Shown here one piece after another: positions 3,338 through 64,000 of a DNA stretch of 64,000 nucleotides (positions within the stretch are counted from its first letter, which is position 1; each line of letters begins with the position of its first letter). The DNA comes from an uncultured Lentimicrobiaceae bacterium (GTDB taxonomy: Bacteria > Bacteroidota > Bacteroidia > Bacteroidales > WCHB1-69): positions 150,543-214,542 of the forward strand of contig CAZRCF010000001.1 in NCBI GenBank assembly GCA_964598505.1, written 5' to 3'. A model generated the notes under the pieces. It was given only the letters and a program-made list of their open reading frames with translations. It had not been told where the DNA came from and searched no databases. The position numbers and the translations under genes are program-made.

Positions 3338-3506
3338 TGTCTTTCTCCTTAAATTTCTTTAAACAACTAGGACAAACATTTCCTGCTGATTTGTGACCAG
3401 TAATATCTGGTCGCCATTCTGAAGGATTACATTTACTACAAAAAATCTTTGCACAAACTTGACAGATATATTCATCTCTCCCACAACACGCGCTAAAGTG
3501 TGGCAT
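3327..3506 (-). CDS. small Cys-rich zinc-ribbon-like protein (59 aa)
   Basis: Hand translation gives MPHFSACCGRDEYICQVCAKIFCSKCNP...CPSC. GGAGG lies 8 nt upstream of the ATG at 3506. Confidence 0.45.
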   Translation of the reverse strand: MPHFSACCGRDEYICQVCAKIFCSKCNPSEWRPDITGHKSAGNVCPSCLKKFKEKDNGC

Positions 3507-3508
3507 TT

Positions 3509-3820
3509 CTAAACCTCCTCTTTTTCTGATTTTTCATGAGCTTCAACAGCTCGGTTCCATCTTGCGAGATACTCTTTAAACGATGCGAGATTCACATATA
3601 ATAACTCCCCGCTAAAAACACAGGCATCTAATGCATCCATTTCTTCATTTCCAGACATTTTCTTCTCCTCCTTATTTTTAGATCCTATACATGTTGCTAA
3701 TGTGCAACCCATACAAAAACATACCCGACAGTAATTTAATGCATTGCAGTCACTATTTCTTTTACATGAAATAGAAGGGGCAAACTTACAATATTCTACA
3801 CGATGTGTTTCAGTTAACAT
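3509..3820 (-). CDS. Cys-rich hypothetical protein (103 aa)
   Basis: ORF track. AAGGAGAAATAAAAATG start context; multiple Cys pairs. Confidence 0.55.
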   Translation of the reverse strand: MLTETHRVEYCKFAPSISCKRNSDCNALNYCRVCFCMGCTLATCIGSKNKEEKKMSGNEEMDALDACVFSGELLYVNLASFKEYLARWNRAVEAHEKSEKEEV

Positions 3821-3832
3821 TTTTATTTCTCC

Positions 3833-4000
3833 TTATTCTAATTCTGGTAAAATTCTTTCTATCATTGCTTCTTCAACAAAACTTACAAGAGTTCCAGTTT
3901 CGTCTTCGTCTAATTCATCCAGACCTTTGAATTTTATTGAAACCTCTTTTACTTCTTCTCCATCAATATCAATTCCCATAACCATAATTATTCTCTTCAT
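3833..4000 (-). CDS. small acidic hypothetical protein (55 aa)
   Basis: Hand translation gives MKRIIMVMGIDIDGEEV...LPELE. It is the first ORF downstream of the promoter-like motif at 4051-4085. Confidence 0.4.
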   Translation of the reverse strand: MKRIIMVMGIDIDGEEVKEVSIKFKGLDELDEDETGTLVSFVEEAMIERILPELE

Positions 4001-4050
4001 TTATTTTTCCTTTCGAAATTAAAATCTCGTAGCGTAATCGCTAAGAGTTT

Positions 4051-4085
4051 ATTATATAATTTCTATATATATAATTTGATTAATA
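4051..4085 (-). promoter_or_regulatory. promoter-like element with invariant ATATAGAAAT block (copy 1)
   Basis: Minus strand reads ATATAGAAAT-TA-TATAAT. The decamer core is at 4059-4068. It sits between a terminator hairpin and the next gene. Confidence 0.55.
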
Positions 4086-4091
4086 AAAATT

Positions 4092-4122
4092 GCGGCAAGA
4101 CCTCATAAAGAGATCTTGCCGC
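4092..4122 (-). terminator. intrinsic terminator; CGGCAAGA(T/C)CT palindromic element variant
   Basis: 13-bp stem GCGGCAAGACCTC/GAGATCTTGCCGC with one mismatch. Followed on the minus strand by AATTTTTATT. Confidence 0.65.
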
Positions 4123-4129
4123 TTTTAAA

Positions 4130-4357
4130 TTAATCTTTCTTTTCTTTTAAACGCTCAAACGATTTAATAATGATTGAAAATGGCATCCAAATAGGACATG
4201 TTAGAACAGCCCATTTTATCATAAAGAATGAAAAGTAGCACATTGCCGGTATTAATAACCAATAATATAACCACCCTTGTGAGAATACATTCATATCATA
4301 TTGAAACATTTTCCAAAGAAATGATAAATACTCATTAATAATATCTTGATATATCAT
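4130..4357 (-). CDS. small membrane protein (75 aa)
   Basis: Hydrophobic segments WLYYWLLIPAMCYFSFFMIKWAVL. Confidence 0.55.
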   Translation of the reverse strand: MIYQDIINEYLSFLWKMFQYDMNVFSQGWLYYWLLIPAMCYFSFFMIKWAVLTCPIWMPFSIIIKSFERLKEKKD

Positions 4358-5166
4358 GCAATTTCTCGCATATACATAGCTGTGTTACCAACTGTTTCAT
4401 CAACTTCAATTTGTATGTTTCCCTGAGTGATTCCAAAGTTATTTAAACACATGTAGTTAATTTTATTAGCAAATAGGAATGCCATATTTTCCGCAGTCGG
4501 ATCTAATTCAAAAGGCATAATCACAATCTTCTGATTATGTTTCGCCATATCTACTAACATTGGATCTTTACTATTTAAAACAATAGCATGATCCATTTCA
4601 TTTAGATCTTCTTGAAATGTTTTCAAGAGACTAAAATCAACAACCATATTTGGATTTTTCATCTTCTTAATATCTTCAATGAAAATACTAACTCTGACAA
4701 CATAGCTGTGACCATGGATTTTAGAACAAGGGTGTCCTTCTCCCATACACATTAGTCTATGTGAAGATTCAAACTTAAAGCTCTTCGTTATTCCATACAT
4801 TCCTCTTATATCTCCTTGTTGATTTATTAAATTATTTGATTGACATTTATTACATCTTGATATTAATAATTTTAAAGAGTTATTTTTATCAATTTTATGA
4901 TTGATGTAATTACTTGATAGATATGAAAAAACTTGCGTTTCATCAAAATCTAATGGTGAATTATGATTATATCCTCTTTTAATTAATTCATCAGCAAGAA
5001 TATCATGACGATTTTTTAAAGATAATGGTTCTAATAAATCATTATTTATATAACCATCAATATTAATTTGTTTCTTTAAACTTCCAAGAAACATGTGACA
5101 TTCATTATGTTCACCTAAGAGATGTTGTCGGCACATGATTTTTGGTGTACACATCCACAATCTCAT
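4354..5166 (-). CDS. queD: fusion: TIGR02328/pyrimidine-dimer-glycosylase-like N-domain + 6-carboxy-tetrahydropterin synthase QueD
   Basis: N-terminus MRLW..P..QHLLGEHNECH...RGYNH. C-terminal half has the QueD signature C-x3-HGH (CSKIHGHSYVV) and DHAIVLN. An internal AAGGAG lies before Met123 (ATG at 4800). Confidence 0.75.
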   Translation of the reverse strand: MRLWMCTPKIMCRQHLLGEHNECHMFLGSLKKQINIDGYINNDLLEPLSLKNRHDILADELIKRGYNHNSPLDFDETQVFSYLSSNYINHKIDKNNSLKLLISRCNKCQSNNLINQQGDIRGMYGITKSFKFESSHRLMCMGEGHPCSKIHGHSYVVRVSIFIEDIKKMKNPNMVVDFSLLKTFQEDLNEMDHAIVLNSKDPMLVDMAKHNQKIVIMPFELDPTAENMAFLFANKINYMCLNNFGITQGNIQIEVDETVGNTAMYMREIA

Positions 5167-5384
5167 AATTTTACTGAAATTTTAAGAGAATTCATAAGAG
5201 TTTCTTTTTTTCTTTTTTCTAATTCTTCTTTCGATGGAGATCCAGCAATTCCACCTAGAGGAGCATTACTAGCAAAAATATCAACAATCATTAATCCAGT
5301 TTCATCCATAAACTTTTGCATTGCTTCTTTAATGGTTGATTCTAATTGTTCTTTCTTTTCTAATAATTCATTCCTTACTGTCAT
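5163..5384 (-). CDS. hypothetical coiled-coil protein (73 aa; start moved to Met30 of track ORF)
   Basis: ATG at 5384 is preceded by GAGGGAGAA. The longer track ORF has no SD. Confidence 0.45.
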   Translation of the reverse strand: MTVRNELLEKKEQLESTIKEAMQKFMDETGLMIVDIFASNAPLGGIAGSPSKEELEKRKKETLMNSLKISVKL

Positions 5385-7507: not shown

Positions 7508-8182
7508 TTACTCCTGATATTTAATCGGATCTTCTTTTCCAATATTTTTGAAAGCCTCTAGTCGTTCTGTACAAGAACCACATTTACCACAAGATAATTC
7601 ATTACTTGTATAACAAGTTCTTGTGAATTCATATGGAACAGGTTTATCAAAAGCATACCCCATTTTAAGAATACCTGTTTTATCTAAGGTTTGAACAGGT
7701 GTTTTAATGAAAATTTTTCCATCACTACTCCTATAAATTGCTTCACCCATAGCATCAATAAATCCTTGTCGGCAATCTGGGTATATTTCATGATCTCCCA
7801 TATGTGTTCCAACAGCAACAATATTTGCTCCAACTGATTCAGCATAACCTGCCATAATTGAAATGAAAATACTATTTCTTCCTGGAACAACTGTTAATGA
7901 CATATTTGAATCGTTATAATGTCCTTCTGGAATTTCTCCTTGACCATCTAAAAGATTGGATTTAAAGAGCTCGCCAATGAAATTAAGATGAACAATTTTT
8001 AATTCTTCAGTTTCATAATAGTCAGCTAATACTATAGCAGATAGCATTTCCTTATCATTGTGCTTACTACCATAATGAAAAAATAACGGATAAATCTTAT
8101 ATCCTTTATTAGCATAATATCCTAGAACTGTTGCTGAATCCATTCCTCCGCTTAAACCCATTACTACTGTGTTGTTTGACAT
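7508..8182 (-). CDS. queC: 7-cyano-7-deazaguanine synthase QueC
   Basis: PP-loop SGGMDS, plus a C-terminal CGKCGSC zinc motif. Start set at Met14, which has AGGAGG upstream. Confidence 0.88.
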   Translation of the reverse strand: MSNNTVVMGLSGGMDSATVLGYYANKGYKIYPLFFHYGSKHNDKEMLSAIVLADYYETEELKIVHLNFIGELFKSNLLDGQGEIPEGHYNDSNMSLTVVPGRNSIFISIMAGYAESVGANIVAVGTHMGDHEIYPDCRQGFIDAMGEAIYRSSDGKIFIKTPVQTLDKTGILKMGYAFDKPVPYEFTRTCYTSNELSCGKCGSCTERLEAFKNIGKEDPIKYQE

Positions 8183-8406
8183 ATTTCCTCCTTTTGTTTT
8201 GGTTGTTCTACTCTTGGACATAAATCATTTTTAAAATATTCAAATAATTCATTTATTAAATCTTGTTGATTATTATAAAGCAATACAGCCATTGTTGCTA
8301 AAATTGCAGCAATTCTATTATCTCCTAATTCTTTAGCAATATCTAATCCATGTGTTAAATTATTAAATAACTGTTCTGTGAGTAGCATTTCTTTTACGGT
8401 TTCCAT
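8164..8406 (-). CDS. hypothetical protein (80 aa)
   Basis: ORF track. First gene downstream of promoter-like copy 2. Confidence 0.5.
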   Translation of the reverse strand: METVKEMLLTEQLFNNLTHGLDIAKELGDNRIAAILATMAVLLYNNQQDLINELFEYFKNDLCPRVEQPKQKEEICQTTQ

Positions 8407-9509: not shown

Positions 9510-9597
9510 TGGCGGAGAGAACAGGATTTGAACCTGTGAATCTTTCGATTGCCAGTTTTCAAGACTGGTTCCATAAGCCAAACTCGGACACCTCTCC
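9510..9597 (-). tRNA. tRNA-Ser (anticodon UGA), type II with long variable arm, encoded CCA
   Basis: Hand-folded cloverleaf. Acceptor GGAGAGG/TCTCTCC, anticodon arm CCAGT-CTTGAAA-ACTGG, variable stem AATC-GAAA-GATT, T arm CAGG-TTCAAAT-CCTG. Confidence 0.9.
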
Positions 9598-9604
9598 AAT
9601 TTAT

Positions 9605-10150
9605 TTAAAATACAAATACTGCTGCAGCAACTACAGATGTGTATCCACCATAAACATATGCTGATTGAGTTATATTTCTAGTTTCAACTATTTTTCCACT
9701 TATTTTAAAGATTTCTTTCTTTTCATCCCAACTATCATCAACATTAAATTCAACACCAAGTGTTGTAGCTAACATTCCAGCTGCAAGATCTTCAGCATAA
9801 TCACCTGCTAGTTTTTTAGTTTGACCAAATGAATGATGTTCGCTTATATATCCATATGAATTTCTATCTGTAGGAATTGCACAACCGACAGAGGATACTA
9901 ATAAACGTTTATTTTCATTACTACAATTTCTACTCATAACACAATGAGTTATTGCGCCCGGTATCAATTGTTTTAGTCCTTCTTTTTTAGATATAACTTT
10001 ACAGTTTGGTGGGAAAATACTTGAAACTGTAACAAGATTACATTTTTCAATTCCAGCATTTCGCAATGCTCTTTCGAAAGAATGCAATTCATCTTTATGA
10101 TGTCCAACACCTCTTGTAAAAAATATCTTTTTAGGTACAAATGATTGCAT
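9605..10150 (-). CDS. pdaD: pyruvoyl-dependent arginine decarboxylase
   Basis: Full-length resemblance to the PvlArgDC family: FFTRGVG.H...L.SFE.ALR.AGIEK.NLV.VSSI.PP (self-cleavage VSS site), GY.SEHH, AEDLAA.MLAT. Confidence 0.8.
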
Positions 10151-11440: not shown

Positions 11441-11659
11441 TCATTTTGATGGATGATGTGTATCCCACCATTCTTGTAATTCTTCTTTTGAACTGATAGG
11501 ACCATTTGACAAGTTTTCTTTTACGTTTTTCTTTATATCTTTTTCTTTTTGTGAACCTGGTTTTACTCTACCTCCACCAGAATAGGTTTCTGTGACCCCA
11601 TAAACAATGAGACCAAGAACAGCACCTATTATCAATTTTCCAAAAAATTCAAACACCAT
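11441..11659 (-). CDS. small membrane protein (72 aa)
   Basis: N-terminal TM segment LIIGAVLGLIVYGV. Confidence 0.5.
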   Translation of the reverse strand: MVFEFFGKLIIGAVLGLIVYGVTETYSGGGRVKPGSQKEKDIKKNVKENLSNGPISSKEELQEWWDTHHPSK

Positions 11660-22690: not shown

Positions 22691-22766
22691 TGGAGCTGAT
22701 GGAGGGAGTCGAACCCCCGACAGGTTGATTACAAATCAACTACTCTTCCAACTGAGTTACATCAGC
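22691..22766 (-). tRNA. tRNA-Thr (anticodon UGU), encoded CCA
   Basis: Hand-folded 76-nt cloverleaf. Acceptor GCTGATG/CATCAGC, D arm ACTC-AGTTGGAA-GAGT, anticodon arm GTTGA-TTTGTAA-TCAAC, T arm GGGGG-TTCGACT-CCCTC. Confidence 0.88.
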
Positions 22767-30517: not shown

Positions 30518-30537
30518 TTATGCCTCCAAAAAGATTT

Positions 30538-30572
30538 ATATCGGCAAGATCAAGTTAAGATCTTGCCGATAT
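30538..30572 (-). terminator. terminator; CGGCAAGATC palindromic element
   Basis: 14-bp stem ATATCGGCAAGATC/GATCTTGCCGATAT with loop AAGTTAA. Located downstream of queE. Confidence 0.7.
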
Positions 30573-30579
30573 ATTTAAT

Positions 30580-31458
30580 TTATATAATTGGAATAGAAAC
30601 ACATTTTGATTTTCTTACATCAACATACTCGTCTCTATGCTTGAAGTTATTAAATACCCAAACATGTGCTCGAGGACTAAATACATATCCTTTTCTCATA
30701 CAATAATCAATTGTATCATAACTAGATTTTCTAAAGTCTTCTAGAAATTTCATTTCAGTCTTATATTCCAAATAATCTGGAGTTAAAGGCATTATACAAA
30801 TATTACAAACATAAGGAATGTCTGTAATAAATTTATTAATTAATTCTTCTTCAGCTTTAGAATATACAAATTTCCAAGTAATTGTAGTTGGTGTTTCTTC
30901 TAATATTTTCCGATACGATTCTCTATAATTCTCATCAAATAATGAAATTATATCATCAACTGTTTTAATCTTATCAGACCTATAATAACTAGGATCTAGC
31001 TTAGGGGATATATTAATTTGTATAGTTTTATCCCAATGATAGAAAAGCATTTTGTCAGTATTGCTGTTTAACAATACTCCATTTGTTTCAATTTCAATTT
31101 TAGTAATATTCTTTAAATTGGTGTTTTTGTTATATATTAAACTTCCAATAAATTCTTTATTCATTAGAGGTTCACCACCAGTTAGAAGAATGGTGTTGAT
31201 TTGAAATTTATTCAAGAATTGTTCATTCAGATAATTTATAAAATCATCTATGCTTGTTTCATCAACAGTGAACGGCAAGATCTTATTTCTAGAACTAAAT
31301 TTCTTAACATCTTTAATCTTTAAATTATTTGACCATGAGGTATCACACCATTCACAATCTAAATTACAATTGCCCATTCTAATGAGTAATACTGGTGTTC
31401 CCACGCTAGGACCTTCACCTTGTACCGTAGGAATTAACTGACTAATAATTGTTTTCAT
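30580..31458 (-). CDS. queE: 7-carboxy-7-deazaguanine synthase QueE (radical SAM)
   Basis: TVQGEGPSVGTPVLLIRMGNCNLDCEWCDT matches the QueE N-terminal signature with the CxxxCxxC-type cluster. GGAGG SD upstream. Confidence 0.85.
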   Translation of the reverse strand: MKTIISQLIPTVQGEGPSVGTPVLLIRMGNCNLDCEWCDTSWSNNLKIKDVKKFSSRNKILPFTVDETSIDDFINYLNEQFLNKFQINTILLTGGEPLMNKEFIGSLIYNKNTNLKNITKIEIETNGVLLNSNTDKMLFYHWDKTIQINISPKLDPSYYRSDKIKTVDDIISLFDENYRESYRKILEETPTTITWKFVYSKAEEELINKFITDIPYVCNICIMPLTPDYLEYKTEMKFLEDFRKSSYDTIDYCMRKGYVFSPRAHVWVFNNFKHRDEYVDVRKSKCVSIPII

Positions 31459-31848
31459 TTATATTTTCGCCTCCTCAACTTTAACTTTTATATCTTTTAA
31501 GGATTTTAATTTTCTAATAAATTCAACTGAACTTATTTTCCTAGTCCAATGAAGAATTAAAATGTCAATATTTAAATAAATCCATTTTTGGAGATTTCTT
31601 TTATTTTTTCCCATAATAGATTTATTAACTTTATTTGGTTTTACATCAATAATATCTCCAGATCTATTAAATACTACATCACACATATCATCTAAATTTG
31701 TTTTTGTATTATTTGGTGCTGCTTTTAGTCGAATATCATGTGGGATATGTTTATCATCAGGAACAAATTGAACCCAGATGGTTGTTCCTATTCCAGTTTC
31801 ATCTGGAGGAATATTTGCAAATTCAAATAATTCTGCAACTGGTAACAT
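31459..31848 (-). CDS. hypothetical protein (129 aa)
   Basis: ORF track; GGAGGCGAAATAATG start context. Confidence 0.55.
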   Translation of the reverse strand: MLPVAELFEFANIPPDETGIGTTIWVQFVPDDKHIPHDIRLKAAPNNTKTNLDDMCDVVFNRSGDIIDVKPNKVNKSIMGKNKRNLQKWIYLNIDILILHWTRKISSVEFIRKLKSLKDIKVKVEEAKI

Positions 31849-32033
31849 TATTTCGCCTCCGATCTTTCTTTAGCTTCTCTAATTAGTGTCGAATGAGTTG
31901 TAACTCCTAATTTCTTAAGAATAATATCTAAAATATTGTGATCTAATTTATATTCTGTTAATTTTAAATATCTTATAAGGGTCTGTCGAAGAATTAATAG
32001 CTCTTCACTATTTAATTCTATTACTTTATTCAC
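31848..32033 (-). CDS. hypothetical protein (61 aa)
   Basis: ORF track; GGAGGCGAAGTG context upstream. Confidence 0.5.
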   Translation of the reverse strand: MNKVIELNSEELLILRQTLIRYLKLTEYKLDHNILDIILKKLGVTTHSTLIREAKERSEAK

Positions 32034-32383: not shown

Positions 32384-32396
32384 TCATTTCCTCTTT

Positions 32397-32570
32397 CTAT
32401 TCACATCTTTTAATTGATTTGACTTTGTGTATTTGCATTTTGATATTCTTGTTGGATTTTATAAATTTTGTCGCTTCTGGTTCATTTTTAAAAATCAAAT
32501 CACAATATTGATTATTTTCATACCAAGCAACAATAAATACATTGACTTCAGTTTCAATTAAATTAGGCAT
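32397..32570 (-). CDS. small hypothetical protein (57 aa)
   Basis: Hand translation gives MPNLIETEVNVFIVAWYENNQ... The ATG overlaps the end of the receiver-domain gene (AATGCCTAA). Confidence 0.35.
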   Translation of the reverse strand: MPNLIETEVNVFIVAWYENNQYCDLIFKNEPEATKFIKSNKNIKMQIHKVKSIKRCE

Positions 32571-32955
32571 TCAATATCTCTCTTATTTTTCGTGATAAAT
32601 CTTCTAATAAAAATGGTTTTTGAATAAATCCATTGTAACCATTTTTCATAATATTATTCACATCAGTTAAACAACATCCGCTCGAAATAATAACTTTAAT
32701 ATTTGGATTAATTTCTCTAAGCATATCAAAGGTATCACTACCAGATAATCCTGGCATAAGCATATCCATAATAACAAGACTTATTTTTTCTTGATTTTCT
32801 ATATAAATATCAAGACCTTCTTGTCCACCATTAGCGGTAAAGACTATATAACCAAGATATTCTAATAAATCTTTATAAAGTTTCGAAGTATTTTTTTCAT
32901 CGTCAATTGTAAGAATTATTATGTCTTTTTTATTAGGTTCTAATGTTGTTCTCAT
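32563..32955 (-). CDS. stand-alone response-regulator receiver (CheY-like REC) domain protein
   Basis: All REC signature positions are present: acidic pair TIDDE, phospho-acceptor Asp in VIMDMLMPG, S in IISSG, K-P in IQKPF. 130 aa with no output domain. Confidence 0.8.
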   Translation of the reverse strand: MRTTLEPNKKDIIILTIDDEKNTSKLYKDLLEYLGYIVFTANGGQEGLDIYIENQEKISLVIMDMLMPGLSGSDTFDMLREINPNIKVIISSGCCLTDVNNIMKNGYNGFIQKPFLLEDLSRKIREILNA

Positions 32956-32974
32956 AATATTGTTCCTCTAATAA

Positions 32975-34525
32975 TTAATTTTGTCGAATTTCTGCAAAAC
33001 TTTTTGCTTTTTCCCAATTATTTTTATTTGTTGTTGAATCGCTAATTGGTTTGGTTTTAAGTCTCTTGCCGATACAAATGTCACATTTACCACATTCTTT
33101 AGTTCTTGTATAGTCGTTAAAATAATCAAGAATTTGTAGCATGCGGCAAGATCTAGTATTACTAACAAATTCGGACATATCAGTAAGAACATCAAATTTA
33201 GCTCTTCTCTTTTCTTCTAGAGTATTAAAATTAAAATATTCATCAAGAGATCTATTATGATCTATTTTATATTTACCTCTTCCAATGGTTTCGATAAAAC
33301 CATTTTCTCTTAATTTGGAAACACATCCACTGGTGTAACAACCTTTCATAAAAGAACTGCATTGTTCTTCCATTTCTTTTTGAGTCATTAATAGCATAGC
33401 ATTATCATCTACATTATCACAACACCATTGCCAAAAAGATCTAATATCTTCATTAGGTGGATATGACATTTCAATAAAGAATTTTTGTAATCCAATGTCT
33501 CTAAAGACATCAAAATATACAATACATTCTGCGCCTTTTCCATCTCTTGAAGCCCGTCCAATTTCCTGATAATAGTTTTCTACACTAGCTGGCATACCAG
33601 CATGAATCACGAAGCGAACGTCTGATTTATCTATTCCCATACCAAATGCAACTGTTGCAACTACAATTCCACCATTTTTAAACCAATTGGTTTGAGTTGA
33701 TTCTCTAGTTTTATCATCTAATCCAGCATGATATAATACAGCTGGAATATTTTCATTTATTAATTTTTCATTTATTTCATCTGCTAATTTTCTAGTAGGT
33801 GCATAAATGATTCCAGTTTTTATTCCAGAGTGAATGTAACCAGATGTTTTCTTTACAATGTGATCAATTTTCGAGGAAGCATTGCAGGTTTTGACTGAAA
33901 GTTCCAGATCTGGCCGGTAAAATCCTTGAATAAATTTCTTAGCTTTTAAAATATTTAATTGTTTACATATGTCTTTTTGAACTCTAGCAGTTGCAGTTGC
34001 TGTTAAAGCTATTACTTGTCTAGGTTCTAAAAATTCAATAGTATCTTTGAGTAATCTATAACTTGGTCTAAAATCGTGACCCCAACTGGAAATACAATGA
34101 GCTTCGTCTACTGCAAATAATTCAATTTTATTTGTCATTTTTAAGGCTTGAGTAAATCTTTGATCACTAAATCTTTCAGGAGCTATATAAAGAAGTTTTA
34201 CTTCTTGTCTTACTAATTTCTGGTGAATTATTTTCTTTTCAAATTCTAGTAGACTTGAATTATAAAATTCAGCAGTAATTCCTTTTGATTTTAAATAATC
34301 AACTTGATCTTTCATTAAACTTATTAGCGGCGAAATCACTATTGATAATCCATCCATGAGTAAAGAAGGAATCTGATATAATAAACTCTTTCCTGCTCCT
34401 GTTGGAAATACTGCTAATACTCCTTTATTTTCAATATCAAATATTGAATCAATAACTTCTGCTTGTGCATCTCTAAATGATTCAAATCCAAATACTTCTT
34501 TTAGAACTGTTTCTTTATCTAACAT
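32975..34525 (-). CDS. recQ: RecQ-family ATP-dependent DNA helicase
   Basis: FGFESFRDAQ, PTGAGKS, DEAHCISSWGHDFRPSY, and a RecQ zinc-binding Cys cluster CRM..L.....CGKCDIC. Confidence 0.9.
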   Translation of the reverse strand: MLDKETVLKEVFGFESFRDAQAEVIDSIFDIENKGVLAVFPTGAGKSLLYQIPSLLMDGLSIVISPLISLMKDQVDYLKSKGITAEFYNSSLLEFEKKIIHQKLVRQEVKLLYIAPERFSDQRFTQALKMTNKIELFAVDEAHCISSWGHDFRPSYRLLKDTIEFLEPRQVIALTATATARVQKDICKQLNILKAKKFIQGFYRPDLELSVKTCNASSKIDHIVKKTSGYIHSGIKTGIIYAPTRKLADEINEKLINENIPAVLYHAGLDDKTRESTQTNWFKNGGIVVATVAFGMGIDKSDVRFVIHAGMPASVENYYQEIGRASRDGKGAECIVYFDVFRDIGLQKFFIEMSYPPNEDIRSFWQWCCDNVDDNAMLLMTQKEMEEQCSSFMKGCYTSGCVSKLRENGFIETIGRGKYKIDHNRSLDEYFNFNTLEEKRRAKFDVLTDMSEFVSNTRSCRMLQILDYFNDYTRTKECGKCDICIGKRLKTKPISDSTTNKNNWEKAKSFAEIRQN

Positions 34526-35318: not shown

Positions 35319-36629
35319 CTATTCATTAAGATCGAATGGAAAACCAATCCGTTCAATGAATTTCTCCATTAGTTTTTCAAATTTATCACTATTATAATTC
35401 ATGTAAGCTTCGTGAAAAACGAAACAGTATTGAAAATTTATTAAATTCTTTTTTGTTCTATTGCCGAATATTAAAGGATATTTATATTCTAATTCTCTTA
35501 ATATCGGCGAGATCTTATTCTTGAATGTATTAAAGTTACTTGTTTCAAGAAACAAATTAACTATATTATTCTTATCAATTTCTTCATCAATAATTTTATC
35601 AATTGTTGTTTGGGCAATAACATTTAATAAACTTGCCATGCGAGTTTCTTCTACGTTTTTACCGTCTCGAACACATTGTAAATCTCTACAAACTGTTTCT
35701 AAGACTTCTTTATTATCAATTACTAAATGCATCTTGTCCATAAGATCGTGTGCATATCCACAGGTGTAAGTTCCATTGGGTTCTGGAATAAACATAATCT
35801 GTTCTTTGAGCTTATACAAACCACTTAATGAATAATTTACAGTATCATATGTAACCTGAACTTTGCATTTTCTATCTTTCAAATAATGTTGATTAAATAG
35901 TTTATGTAAGAAACTCATAATCATTCTATCATGTAAATGATATACTCCTAAAATATGAATAATACTTGTGTAATCAAGATTCTTATCATTGATTAATTTT
36001 AAGATCTTATATGTTATTCCTATAAAGGGACTGAATTTGATTCCAGTTATTCCTCTTAAAGAAACTAATCCTCCGACGGCAAAATTCTTCAAATTATTAT
36101 TATCGGCAAAATTCTCTTGATATACTTGTTTCCAAATATTATATTGCTTCAACAATTTAAACTGCCAAACAAAAGTATATTTATCATATAATTTTGGATT
36201 CTTTTCTAGAATTTTTACTGCTGTCGAAATAGATCTAGAATTAGCTTCTAGAATTGTTTTTATATTATTATTTTCTGGATATTTTAAAAAGATCGGAATA
36301 TCTAATGAAAATATATAATCGCAATTATCTGGTGCGTCTCTTTCCAGAAACATGTTGTAACATTCCGTAAATTTTCCAACATCTCTTGGGGAAACATCGC
36401 CTGCTATGATACTATATCCACCGGAGTCGACGAAGAATTTTCTACCATTATCCAGCACTTGCCGGTATTGTTTAATTTCTTCCGTAACACGATGAAGAGT
36501 ATCAAATCCGAAATTCCCCTGCCTCATTCCCTTAATTAAACTGAATAAGTAATTATTAACGTATTTATCAATTAATTTGAGTTGGTTCGATTCTATCACG
36601 TCGCCAGTCGTGTGTACGTATTGAAACAT
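35319..36629 (-). CDS. dpdA: DpdA-like tRNA-guanine-transglycosylase-superfamily protein (candidate 7-deazaguanine DNA transglycosylase)
   Basis: FFVDSGGYSI resembles the TGT/DpdA DSGGF(Q/S) substrate-pocket motif. About 430 aa in size. Co-occurs with folE2, queC, queD and queE. Confidence 0.6.
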   Translation of the reverse strand: MFQYVHTTGDVIESNQLKLIDKYVNNYLFSLIKGMRQGNFGFDTLHRVTEEIKQYRQVLDNGRKFFVDSGGYSIIAGDVSPRDVGKFTECYNMFLERDAPDNCDYIFSLDIPIFLKYPENNNIKTILEANSRSISTAVKILEKNPKLYDKYTFVWQFKLLKQYNIWKQVYQENFADNNNLKNFAVGGLVSLRGITGIKFSPFIGITYKILKLINDKNLDYTSIIHILGVYHLHDRMIMSFLHKLFNQHYLKDRKCKVQVTYDTVNYSLSGLYKLKEQIMFIPEPNGTYTCGYAHDLMDKMHLVIDNKEVLETVCRDLQCVRDGKNVEETRMASLLNVIAQTTIDKIIDEEIDKNNIVNLFLETSNFNTFKNKISPILRELEYKYPLIFGNRTKKNLINFQYCFVFHEAYMNYNSDKFEKLMEKFIERIGFPFDLNE

Positions 36630-39391: not shown

Positions 39392-39425
39392 TATCGGCAA
39401 GATCTTTAACTAGATCTTGCCGATA
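39392..39425 (-). terminator. terminator; 28-bp CGGCAAGATCT palindromic element, inverted copy
   Basis: CGGCAAGATCTTTAACTAGATCTTGCCG is the exact reverse complement of the cores at 45338 and 53651. Confidence 0.7.
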
Positions 39426-39436
39426 AAATATAAAAA

Positions 39437-57087: not shown

Positions 57088-57876
57088 TTAATAATTTGTC
57101 ATTATTGCTACTGCATTGTGAGCGTGAATTGATTCATCGGATTCTACACTTACTTTAAATTTCTCAACATCTTCCATTTTATCTAATTTATCATATACGG
57201 CGCGAGCTATATCTTCGACAAACATTGGACTATTGTATGCTCTTTCTGTAACTACTTTTTCATCAATTCTCTTAAGTACTGAAAATATTTCACAAGATGA
57301 AGATGATTCTGCCGCTTCAATAAGGGATTCAATCCAAATAAATGAATTCTCTTTTCCTTGAACTACCATATCAATTAATACTTTCTGATTGTGTGCTCCA
57401 TATTCAGATATTTCTTTTGAGCAAGGACATAGAGATGTTGCTAATACTTTGACACCCAATCTAAATATGAAATTGTCTTTTGTTTTAATTCCAGTAAAAG
57501 AAATATGATATGGAAGTATACCAGGTTCCTGAGAAGCTGGAGCTAACTTCTGAACAAAATATGGAAACGAATAACTTATTTCACAAGTATCCGCTTCCGC
57601 TGAAATTCTTATATTTTCTGCAATTGAACTAATTAGTTTACCATTAAGTTGTTGTCCAACAAATTTCTGTAAACCAATTATTAATCTACTCATATTTGTT
57701 CCTTTAAGATTAGCAGCGAGATCTACATAACAATCAACTTTAGCAACTGAATGTTGTACTCCTCCGTTCTTCATTGAAACAAAAATAGGAAGTTCAACAG
57801 AATTGATACCAACTCTATTGATCCTAATTTCATGTACTGGTAATGTGTATTGCATATCCGGTAAGTTTTCTGACAT
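57088..57876 (-). CDS. folE2: GTP cyclohydrolase IB (FolE2 / GCYH-IB)
   Basis: N-terminal LPDMQ, RVGIN..ELPI, and SLCPCSKEIS..GAHNQ metal-site motif. AGGAGA SD upstream. Confidence 0.85.
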   Translation of the reverse strand: MSENLPDMQYTLPVHEIRINRVGINSVELPIFVSMKNGGVQHSVAKVDCYVDLAANLKGTNMSRLIIGLQKFVGQQLNGKLISSIAENIRISAEADTCEISYSFPYFVQKLAPASQEPGILPYHISFTGIKTKDNFIFRLGVKVLATSLCPCSKEISEYGAHNQKVLIDMVVQGKENSFIWIESLIEAAESSSSCEIFSVLKRIDEKVVTERAYNSPMFVEDIARAVYDKLDKMEDVEKFKVSVESDESIHAHNAVAIMTNY

Positions 57877-62384: not shown

Positions 62385-63383
62385 TTATACTTGTCCTAAG
62401 AAAATTTTCTCATAAATTGTCAAATTCTCAAGATCGATATTATCAAGTTCCTCTAAATCCACTTTTTCAATAGTTTCTTTGTTTGGTTGATATAATAATC
62501 CAATTCGGCTAGATATAAAACTTGCCATCATTTTGTCACCAAGTTTATATGTCGGTGGCAGATCTTGCCGATATCTCCAGAATTCTTTTTTATCATAATC
62601 TGTTATAAACATGTTTGCAAATAATATTTCAACAAAGGAACTGTATAAATTTCCAACTGTTAATAAAGCAGTCATCAATTCTATATAGTAAGGTACAACT
62701 GAAGTTGTAACTGGTCCTTGTCTTAATATGGATTTAATATTGTTAACAACCGAGATTACATCCTGATTGTAGACTATATGATGATCTTCACCATATATAA
62801 GAGTTTTACCTTTGACTTCTTTTAATCCATATACTTGTTGTGTAGATGAAGAAACTATTAATTGAATTGGAAATTGATCTGTATCGAATTCTAATGTAGT
62901 TTCCTCTTGATTATTAATAATATCTGTTTTCACATTTATTAAATGTTCTTCAAAAAATTTAACAATTTCAGAATCAACTGGTAGAGTTGCCCGCCCAGAC
63001 TCGTGAAAAGTTCTCAATGTTAGCTGCGTTAGCCGCTCTGTTATTAATTGCCCAGCTACAATACCAGCATATTTCGTTGTTAATCTTTTTGCACCAAAAC
63101 ACTTGTTGCAAATTTTGAAATTATGATTCACACAAGTCATCGGGGAACGAACACAAATCTTTTTATTTATATAGCTCTTTGCCGTTATAGAATCTAATAT
63201 TTTCCAATCAGGAAATGTCTCTAATTCTTTAGGGTCACAATAATATTTTCCAATTAATGTTGAAGCATGATCCTTAGACATTACAATAAATTCTAAATGA
63301 TTGTTCGTTTCACAATCTTCGAGATCAAATTCAATCATTGACAGGGCCATTACAAGAGTACGTTCTAAATCAGAAATATTCAA
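62385..63383 (-). CDS. multisubunit RNA polymerase beta-prime homolog fragment (second half of bridge helix through trigger loop); probable downstream exon
   Basis: [25 protein letters not shown] aligns with [43 protein letters not shown] aligns with [45 protein letters not shown] is the trigger loop. The ORF opens with TTG right after an in-frame TAG and has no SD. Confidence 0.75.
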   Translation of the reverse strand: [332 protein letters not shown]

Positions 63384-64000
63384 CTAGAATCGCTATTTCT
63401 AGTTCTGTCTCAAAAGAGACAGCTGCATATTACTATGCAGCTTAGACTATATCTTCACTCTAAATTTTTAAATTGTTACATGTTTCCAGGTTTTTCCATT
63501 ATCAATACACCATATTGCAGTTACAGACGTATTAAACTGTTTCGCAATTGCATGTTGTGATATTCCATTCTTCAATAACTGTTTAATTTGTTTTACTTGT
63601 TGAATTGTAAATTTATCATGTATAATTTTTCTTTTAATATCTGATAACGATATATTTTGATTTAGTTGAGATGTTATGTGAGTCCACGCATTTCCGTTTA
63701 ATATATTTATAATAGGAATTCGAGAAATTTTATATATTTCAGTAATATGTTTTACAGATAATAATTCACCAGACCAAATTCTATTTAACATTTCTTTAAC
63801 TTGTTCATCTGTTAAGATTGAACCACCATGTCTTGATCCAATTGTATTTCTTCCTTTTTGTTTTGCGTCCTTATTATTGTCATCATATGTTCCTAAGAAC
63901 AAATGATCAGGATTACAACAAGATGGATTATCACATTTATGACACACTAATAATCCAGTTGGAATATATCCATTAAAGAACTCCCAAGAGAGTCTATGAA
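63384..64000 (-). mobile_element. candidate group I-type intron (3' part) carrying an HNH homing-endonuclease ORF, inserted in a beta-prime gene; continues beyond window
   Basis: An HNH ORF is followed by an 84-nt non-coding tail. The tail has three consecutive perfect hairpins (63384-63402, 63405-63422, 63422-63441) and ends ...CTAG directly at the start of the beta-prime reading frame. Confidence 0.45.
63468..64000 (-). CDS. HNH homing endonuclease (HNH_3-type with C-terminal helix-turn-helix-like repeats), 5' end outside window
   Basis: The reading frame is open to the window edge: ..HRLSWEFFNGYIPTGLLVCHKCDNPSCCNPDHLFLGT, the classic HNH_3 motif. The GTG in the ORF track is internal. Confidence 0.8.
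   Translation of the reverse strand, partial: HRLSWEFFNGYIPTGLLVCHKCDNPSCCNPDHLFLGTYDDNNKDAKQKGRNTIGSRHGGSILTDEQVKEMLNRIWSGELLSVKHITEIYKISRIPIINILNGNAWTHITSQLNQNISLSDIKRKIIHDKFTIQQVKQIKQLLKNGISQHAIAKQFNTSVTAIWCIDNGKTWKHVTI

Follow-up and report, generated by a model that had tools for sequence, protein, structure and literature searches.

A stand-alone receiver domain related to hybrid-kinase receivers is encoded downstream of recQ in an uncultured AT-rich jumbo phage

Results

A complete receiver domain without an output domain

We analysed a stretch of 64,000 nucleotides of contig CAZRCF010000001.1 (GenBank assembly GCA_964598505.1, positions 150,543 to 214,542 of the forward strand; hereafter the window) around a gene for a 130-amino-acid (aa) single-domain receiver protein, here called REC. 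The gene lies at 32563–32955 on the minus strand and was identified as an open reading frame (ORF) with an ATG start, by its match to Pfam family PF00072, its signature residues, an AlphaFold2 (AF2) model and Foldseek searches. Directly upstream on the same strand is the gene for a 516-aa helicase of the RecQ family (32975–34525), which carries the Pfam domains DEAD, Helicase_C and RecQ_Zn_bind and scores 397.8 bits against the NCBIfam recQ_fam model TIGR00614 (cut-off 219.8). In this same-strand block the order of genes is RecQ, REC, small ORFs and then a QueE-like radical-SAM gene. The RecQ stop codon TAA occupies 32977–32975 and the REC ATG 32955–32953, leaving a spacer of 19 nt (32974–32956) that contains a Shine-Dalgarno-like AGAGGAA (32963–32969, minus strand) 7 nt 5′ of the ATG. 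A first-pass annotation of this DNA had described the REC start 19 nt past the recQ stop and its own Shine-Dalgarno sequence, and both can be read directly. RecQ and REC are in different frames and hence are two separate proteins; a RecQ-REC fusion through read-through was rejected on these grounds. REC is also not covalently fused to a kinase transmitter, the 130-aa ORF having its own stop codon and the RecQ stop upstream.

The REC protein matches Pfam Response_reg (PF00072) with E = 1.7e-19 and 70.5 bits (cut-off 30.2). The match spans protein residues 14–124 and profile positions 1–110 of 111; Pfam found no second domain in the protein, and an output domain is absent. Signature residues were read from an alignment to Escherichia coli CheY and Bacillus subtilis Spo0F and by direct read-out. 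The acidic pair D18/D19 corresponds to CheY D12/D13, the phospho-acceptor D64 (in IMDMLMPG) to D57, S92 (in ISSG) to T87, the aromatic switch residue F110 to Y106, and K113-P114 (in QKPF; the Lys-cisPro pair) to K109-P110, and the active-site quintet D18, D19, D64, S92 and K113 is complete. An AF2 model built with 20 homologues (mean predicted local distance difference test, pLDDT, 90.9; predicted template modelling score, pTM, 0.86) has the (beta-alpha)5 fold of five strand-helix units. Using this model, Foldseek returned 581 PDB matches at E≤1e-3, and nearly all of the top 50 listed were response regulators or isolated receiver domains, headed by 3jte (template modelling score, TM, 0.85; 40% identity). 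Pfam, alignments and AF2 thus agree with the earlier description of a 130-aa protein with intact receiver signature residues and no output domain, and the profile search gave classical PF00072 rather than a non-receiver flavodoxin-like family; such agreement goes well beyond chance. The phage ORF at 32563–32955 encodes a canonical, complete receiver domain without an output domain and, judging from its sequence, the protein should be phosphorylatable at the conserved Asp.

The DNA surrounding REC has a GC content of 29% over the window (26–32% along its length), and all ORFs of at least 120 aa except one are on the minus strand. PHROGs identified split phage-type multisubunit RNA polymerase beta/beta′ genes, a ribonucleotide reductase and a NAD-dependent ligase. 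An identical REC protein is recorded on a metagenomic contig of 256,708 bp, and REC was also recovered on contigs of 205 kb (ENA), 8.9 kb (Logan) and 8.6 kb (JGI), which are 100% identical to the window where compared. The RNA polymerase genes, the strand bias and the ~256-kb contig support the previous assignment of REC to a phage, and we conclude that the window is part of an uncultured AT-rich jumbo phage of ~256 kb. A known cultured phage was considered and rejected: megablast of 7 kb of the region against INPHARED gave zero matches, and the RNA polymerase subunit is only 22–26% identical to those of Fusobacterium JD-Fnp phages, Listeria LPJP1, Staphylococcus S6 and Yersinia phiR1-37. The host is not inferable from these relatives.

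Relationship to hybrid-kinase receivers

We searched 1.84 billion cluster representatives exhaustively with REC using phmmer and obtained 264,745 matches at E≤1e-3, the best 150 of which were classified. In 129 of them the protein has at least 400 aa and the matching receiver ends no more than 30 residues from the C-terminus; the others are ten long proteins with an internal receiver, ten of mid length, most of them with the receiver at the C-terminus, and one short stand-alone protein. The four closest relatives (57–61% identity) are hybrid kinases, for which the architecture PAS + HisKA + HATPase_c + REC was verified, and the nearest hybrid-kinase receivers as a group are 50–61% identical to REC at 115–135 bits. 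By comparison, PDB chains of CheY and Spo0F score 41–45 bits (Spo0F ~41), and REC shares 23% identity with E. coli CheY and 27% with B. subtilis Spo0F. The best NCBIfam match is the CckA C-terminal receiver (68.5 bits), the CheY, Spo0A and CpdR models giving 40–45 bits, far under their cut-offs (the best CheY model, NF041367, reaches 45.2 bits against a cut-off of 200). By these relationships REC is an orphaned C-terminal receiver of the PAS-HisKA-HATPase_c-REC hybrid-kinase subfamily. The label ‘CheY-like’ that it had been given is correct at the level of the superfamily, but its closest kin are hybrid-kinase receivers and CheY and Spo0F score far lower. Links to sporulation or chemotaxis, also raised by the first-pass annotation, are not supported: REC groups with neither CheY nor Spo0F, che, spo and cell-cycle genes are not found nearby, and the window contains no che genes or CheA-like ORFs. 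Likewise nothing supports the proposed low-GC (Firmicute) host, the kinase family being annotated mainly in metagenome-assembled genomes (MAGs) of Syntrophales/Desulfobacterota.

The hybrid-kinase receivers closest to REC (in P0040, P0044, P0047 and P0048; ‘CckA’-type by their JGI label) are of a kind common in Syntrophales/Desulfobacterota MAGs. They share with REC 57–61% identity over the whole domain, the same length, the same active site and the motifs MPG(L/I)SGSDTFD, INP..KV and NGFIQKPF..E(L/D)LS.K(I/L)RE. Unlike them, the phage protein is free-standing, has its GxET linker replaced and residues Y94 and C107 swapped, and sits on a long branch. Cellular single-domain regulators (CheY, Spo0F, DivK, CpdR, MrrA, EpsW and Osp) resemble REC in consisting of a receiver only and in having the same fold, with Foldseek TM values of 0.79–0.83 between the REC model and structures of Spo0F, DivK and CheY, but differ in that REC is only 23–27% identical to CheY/Spo0F, falls short of the cut-offs of the CheY, Spo0F and CpdR models and is virus-encoded. 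None of these regulators depends on a DNA-binding output, which is likewise absent from REC.

To describe how REC departs from its subfamily we used a conservation profile from the 70 nearest receivers, in which 62 positions are at least 80% conserved. REC keeps 47 of these 62, the whole active site included. Subfamily residues Y94 (T+2; 99% conserved) and C107 (in the RGC.GF motif; 100%) are exchanged in REC, giving C94 and Y107, and other deviations are D59S, L63M, I66L (D+2) and L90I. The reciprocal swap at 94 and 107 looks compensatory rather than degenerative and, with the positions that are kept, hints at a function that is retained or retuned. The D+2 (I66L) and T+2 (Y94C) positions are ones that we take to tune the rates of receiver autophosphorylation and autodephosphorylation. 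The REC branch has a length of 0.27, about twice the median of 0.14, as could result from relaxed constraint or from adapting to a new role.

Origin of the receiver

The gene closest to REC is the 3′ end of P0044, a PAS-HisKA-HATPase_c-REC gene for a 662-aa hybrid kinase, located among orphan ORFs at 253–2241 of a 2.3-kb contig of 25.6% GC (L016; ENA ERZ27313067 k141_11608). Over 351 bp this 3′ end and the REC gene share 75% nucleotide and 59% aa identity. The similarity starts at residue 14 of the phage protein, and the N-terminal 13 residues are unrelated to the conserved GxET linker that precedes strand 1 in the kinases. The GC content at third codon positions (GC3) of REC (0.145, phage 0.167±0.041) and its codon fit (0.371, phage 0.315±0.07) are both in the range of the phage. 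P0044 itself fits phage usage at 0.448, whereas the receiver regions of GC-richer relatives do not (−0.08 to −0.69). The simplest reading, which we infer from this pattern, is capture of the receiver end of a hybrid-kinase gene. The receiver-coding 3′ end would have been taken from an equally AT-rich genome, that of the host or of another phage of the same gene pool, and would then have gained its own ribosome-binding site and a start codon, along with a new N-terminus of 13 residues.

The contigs carrying P0044 are 2.3–3.8 kb long with tightly packed genes. No relatives of P0044 were found in IMG/VR, its best matches in GTDB genomes are 47–50% identical, and among the 120 matches listed of 8000 none is closer than 60%. 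On the longer P0044 contig a Methyltransf_21 gene lies two genes downstream, and this family also occurs in the present phage and in its relative L004 (see below). P0044 may itself be phage-borne, in which case this group of phages would carry two-component parts of its own.

Receivers in other viruses

In the BFVD collection 27 viral structures match the REC model at E≤1e-3. Kinases from giant viruses and phaeoviruses make up the majority, and a few are phage proteins of 125–153 aa, such as that of Alteromonas phage vB_AmeM_PT11-V22. INPHARED has 13 records matching REC at E≤1e-5, and PHROGs holds the REC-containing families phrog_731, 5982, 20458 and 37855. Virus-encoded receivers are rare as a class. 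They superimpose on the REC model with TM values of 0.76–0.82, and a few consist of a receiver alone and come close to REC in size, but they are only 16–26% identical to REC, pointing to independent acquisitions. Phage single-domain regulators had been said to be rarely characterised, and this is borne out by our literature search, which found no characterised phage single-domain receiver and no study of the PT11-V22 protein; to our knowledge no viral receiver has been characterised. REC is hence an independently acquired further case of a known, unstudied type of viral receiver, and what it adds is its hybrid-kinase ancestry and its presence in a cassette.

A non-signalling, enzyme-like receiver termed cRec has been reported specifically in jumbo phages, with its catalytic aspartates kept, and proposed to process cyclic phosphate or ADP-ribose-derived nucleotides (Iyer et al. 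2021, PMC7824862). That REC could be such a protein is extremely improbable. cRec is described as divergent, never kinase-linked and always beside genes for NAD+/ADP-ribose processing (PMC7824862), whereas REC is a high-scoring classical PF00072 member with kinase-fused relatives, and its neighbours are RecQ, orphan ORFs and the QueE-like gene. Moreover, the only BFVD protein named cRec matches the REC model at E = 7e-3 and TM 0.57, compared with TM ~0.8 for classical receivers. We consider a cRec identity effectively refuted by the family assignment.

A variable cassette between recQ and the QueE-like gene

From the breaks in blastn alignments and the junction sequences we defined a strain-specific two-gene cassette of ~590 bp (32389–32980, minus strand), made up of REC and a 57-aa orphan ORF (32397–32570, minus strand). 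The ATG of this ORF and the stop codon of REC share 8 nt (ATGCCTAA). Two syntenic relatives were available for comparison: L004, a 16-kb contig that carries the 90%-cluster mate of RecQ and has ~88% DNA identity to the window, and L005, a more distant relative from IMG/VR with ~72% DNA identity. In L004, RecQ is followed directly by a 117-aa gene and then by the QueE-like radical-SAM gene, and REC is absent. The blastn block between the window and L004 ends at 32981 and restarts at 32388, over which L004 moves only from 11542 to 11558; the ~590-bp cassette thus corresponds to ~15 bp of intergenic DNA. In L005 the QueE-like gene comes directly after RecQ, and REC is again absent. The RecQ orthologues themselves are well preserved (~89% nucleotide identity in L004, 70% aa identity in L005), and RecQ is a conserved flank of the cassette, not a member of it. 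A conserved linkage of recQ and REC is therefore contradicted by two syntenic relatives that have recQ without REC. Distribution among related phages, which had been put forward as a check, gives a divided answer: REC is present in identical contigs and absent from L004 and L005. Three genomes do not suffice to polarise gain and loss of the cassette; whether gained or lost, REC is dispensable for the phage lineage.

A second indel occurs in the same slot: L004 lacks the orphan ORFs of 61 aa and 129 aa (31456–32017, minus strand) that in the window separate the QueE-like gene from the 117-aa gene. L005 is without all five small genes. Accessory genes have a hot spot in the interval between RecQ and QueE.

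No orthologue of REC above ~61% identity was found in word-index, phmmer or JGI metagenome searches. The word-index search gave REC itself and then matches of at most 53% full-length identity (61% for one 78-aa fragment). Scanning IMG/VR with REC gave six loci, the best being a full-length hybrid kinase of 39% identity on a 358-kb contig, and scanning JGI metagenomes gave nothing above 49%, the best being a 792-aa kinase ORF. We note that L010 (IMGVR_UViG_3300017963_000188), a 358-kb contig classed as viral, encodes at 3402–5357 a PAS hybrid kinase of 651 aa that ends in a receiver.

These data raise the question of whether REC is a neutral or decaying passenger, that is, a hybrid-kinase fragment gained by illegitimate recombination in a variable intergenic slot. 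Its absence from both syntenic relatives, the failure to find any orthologue above ~61% identity and the presence in the same slot of other orphan ORFs that vary between relatives are all as such an origin would predict, as are the long branch and the 15 changes at conserved positions, two of them otherwise invariant. The state of the gene argues the other way. Its frame is intact, with all catalytic residues, a start codon and a Shine-Dalgarno sequence, the Y94/C107 changes are reciprocal and not random, and the fold is predicted with high confidence. Its phage-like codon usage implies that the frame has stayed open over a long residence, or else that the donor shared this bias. On balance we think it rather unlikely that REC is a passenger.

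Potential partners of REC

We looked for phosphotransfer partners of REC and found no HisKA, HATPase_c, Hpt, CheA-like or second REC domain among the Pfam-scanned ORFs of the window, the scan covering all ORFs except those of <55 aa and six large ones identified by PHROGs (RNA polymerase subunits, ribonucleotide reductase and NAD-dependent ligase). Searching all window ORFs by phmmer with kinase fragments, EnvZ and CheA likewise gave nothing, and precomputed Pfam matches for ~8 kb beyond each window end contained no kinase, Hpt or REC.

The other member of the cassette, the 57-aa ORF, is called as a gene in three assemblies and, in the comparison of the window with its relatives, is present or absent together with REC. 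Among 5.8 billion proteins it matches only itself, and Pfam, PHROGs, PADLOC and NCBIfam gave no family match. A single-sequence AF2 prediction has a pLDDT of 78 and a beta3-alpha-beta2 fold, for which Foldseek found nothing significant (the top matches, Dmd and p56, having E of at least 0.29). The ORF, inserted together with REC, may encode a partner of it.

REC could alternatively be a phospho-switch adaptor and not a sink. After phosphorylation by a host kinase or by acetyl phosphate, the receiver would bind and control one particular protein, in the manner of CheY, DivK, CpdR and EpsW. Its target might be the 57-aa protein, inserted with REC and translationally coupled to it, or some other phage or host protein, and the phage would in this way read the state of its host to time its programme. 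We give this explanation a minor share of our confidence. The switch residue F110 and S92 are kept, and the 8-nt overlap of the two genes and their joint presence or absence are as for a functional pair, the smaller of which folds, with moderate confidence, as a small beta3-alpha-beta2 domain; protein-binding single-domain regulators are also well documented, for example EpsW (PMC12802240) and MrrA (PMC5964349). However, the 57-aa ORF is without homologue or structural match and its reality as a gene is unproven, nothing connects the receiver to any output, and the nearest relatives of REC are intermediate phosphorelay receivers, which normally pass phosphate on and are not effector binders.

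Transcription unit

A consensus scan detected a terminator-like hairpin with a 15-bp stem at 30537–30573 (minus strand), 3′ of the QueE-like gene, and no terminator-like sites between 34525 and 30573. The absence of a terminator between recQ and this hairpin suggests that a single transcript probably covers REC and the DNA-metabolism genes around it, and the hairpin probably ends a transcription unit comprising recQ, REC and the small ORFs. The position of the REC gene for co-expression with recQ is thus supported. Sites resembling sigma-70 promoters were not above the level of shuffled sequence (51 found, 56±8 expected).

The hairpin is a perfect 15-bp stem (TATATCGGCAAGATC...GATCTTGCCGATATA) and is conserved in L004 and L005. 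A second copy, 92% identical, is found in another intergenic gap at ~39392–39428, and the two are probably a shared terminator or regulatory repeat.

Other genes of the window

With E = 2e-135, RecQ matches the models that PADLOC names ‘DpdF’. Against the curated NCBIfam equivalog for DpdF it reaches only 183.6 bits of the 550 required, but it passes the cut-off of the recQ family model. The PADLOC match most likely reflects generic RecQ similarity, and the name DpdF, tempting near 7-deazaguanine genes, is unproven.

A complete set of genes for preQ0 (7-deazaguanine) synthesis, recognised by domain and family matches, is scattered over the window, all on the minus strand. It consists of a FolE2-type GTP cyclohydrolase (GCHY-1), a 270-aa protein with Pyr_excise and PTPS/QueD domains, QueC and the QueE-like radical-SAM enzyme (57088–57876, 4354–5166, 7508–8221 and 30580–31458). 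These genes suggest that the phage DNA is modified with 7-deazaguanine; a transglycosylase of the DpdA/TGT type was not recognised in the window. Upstream of recQ, at a distance of two to four small ORFs that varies with the gene caller, is a 436-aa ORF (35319–36629, minus strand) that is kept in L004 and L005 at ~81–88% nucleotide identity and has no Pfam, PHROG or PDB sequence match. Because preQ0 genes are present, this ORF is a candidate for an unrecognised DNA-modifying enzyme.

The window also encodes a pyruvoyl-dependent arginine decarboxylase, PvlArgDC (9605–10150, minus strand; E = 1.2e-59), an unusual auxiliary gene for a phage that might serve polyamine synthesis or a base-modification pathway. 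Genes for tRNA Ser-UGA (9510–9597) and tRNA Thr-UGU (22691–22766) are found on the minus, coding strand. In Pfam searches of the region comprising 62385–63383 and 63468–64000 and continuing past the window (minus strand; L105 6259–9316), an HNH_3/HTH_7 endonuclease gene was seen between two fragments of the RNA polymerase beta′ homologue, which carry Rpb1_2 and Rpb1_5 domains. A homing endonuclease may have caused or exploited the split of beta′.

Discussion

The receiver described here is complete and has no output domain of its own, and the mechanism that we judge most reasonable is the one put forward in the first-pass annotation, namely the tapping or draining of host phosphotransfer. More specifically, we propose as its most likely role, at a little under even confidence, that REC is a decoy: set free from any kinase, the receiver would drain or block a hybrid-kinase phosphorelay of the host. 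Hybrid-kinase receivers dock on the DHp domain of the kinase and on Hpt proteins. A free receiver that is abundant during infection would compete for this docking in a His-Asp-His-Asp relay. As a sink, it would take the phosphoryl group from the phospho-histidine of the kinase or from Hpt and lose it by autodephosphorylation; as a block, it would occupy the docking surface of the transmitter or of Hpt. By either route the terminal response regulator would remain under-phosphorylated and the adaptive response of the host would be blunted.

There are precedents for parts of this scheme. The single-domain regulator Osp is a stoichiometric inhibitor of the hybrid kinase CckA, to whose transmitter it binds (PMC9430884). 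PIT4, an early protein of Pseudomonas phage LSL4, binds the histidine-kinase domains of several host kinases (PMC10714779). PIT4 would be a functional analogue of REC and not a homologue: both affect host two-component signalling (in the case of REC, as proposed here), but PIT4 acts by kinase binding and not by phosphotransfer, and it is not described as a receiver domain (PMC10714779). The stand-alone receiver DtcB is proposed to buffer phosphate in the defence system Detocs (bioRxiv 10.1101/2023.01.24.525353). Like REC, DtcB is a receiver-only protein, and the soaking up of phosphate proposed for it is the mechanism that we propose for REC. Unlike REC, it is host-encoded in a dtcA-dtcB-dtcC operon, and the window contains neither a kinase gene nor a receiver-effector gene among the ORFs scanned.

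The parallel with DtcB raises the possibility of an anti-defence decoy, in which REC would mimic DtcB in a system of the Detocs kind and the effector regulator would never be activated. Strain-specific cassettes in variable slots of phage genomes often hold counter-defence genes, which counts in favour of this explanation, and the changes at D+2 and T+2 would suit a fast sink. Detocs combines a kinase, a stand-alone receiver buffer and a receiver-effector, and mutation of the DtcB aspartate makes it toxic, so that a free receiver can restrain the system (bioRxiv 10.1101/2023.01.24.525353). Nevertheless, we think an anti-defence role improbable. PADLOC gave REC only a chance-level match to JetC (PADLOC 2.0.0, which may lack Detocs models), the relatives of REC are PAS sensor kinases of ordinary architecture and not Detocs components, and our literature search found no phage receiver that inhibits Detocs. 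We assign a low probability to a composite scenario, in which REC was excised from a hybrid kinase, retuned at D+2 and T+2 and, with a small partner protein, short-circuits either a Detocs-like anti-phage system or a phosphorelay of the host.

Several observations weigh against a decoy that drains or blocks a host phosphorelay. REC is missing from the two closest relatives and is therefore dispensable, possibly as a neutral passenger. Changes at 15 of the 62 strongly conserved positions, together with the long branch, possibly reflect relaxed constraint. Four contigs carry REC and the three that were compared are identical over the stretches compared; such contigs, which may come from the same or related samples, provide no population evidence of selection. 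The partner search covered ~80 of ~256 kb, and a phage-encoded kinase or Hpt elsewhere is possible. Finally, since the host is not inferable, no target kinase can be named. Dispensability in close relatives and the lack of an inferable host also limit direct testing.

Receiver domains are among the commonest bacterial domains and, as it stands, REC is a further accessory gene of host origin carried by an uncultured jumbo phage. If it is a purpose-evolved decoy, it would be the first viral ‘phosphate sink’ inhibitor. It would also provide a compact 130-aa reagent, with D64A as a control, to probe hybrid-kinase relays in poorly studied anaerobes. In that case phages would disable His-Asp signalling by borrowing the intermediate module of the pathway itself and not by means of a new inhibitor.

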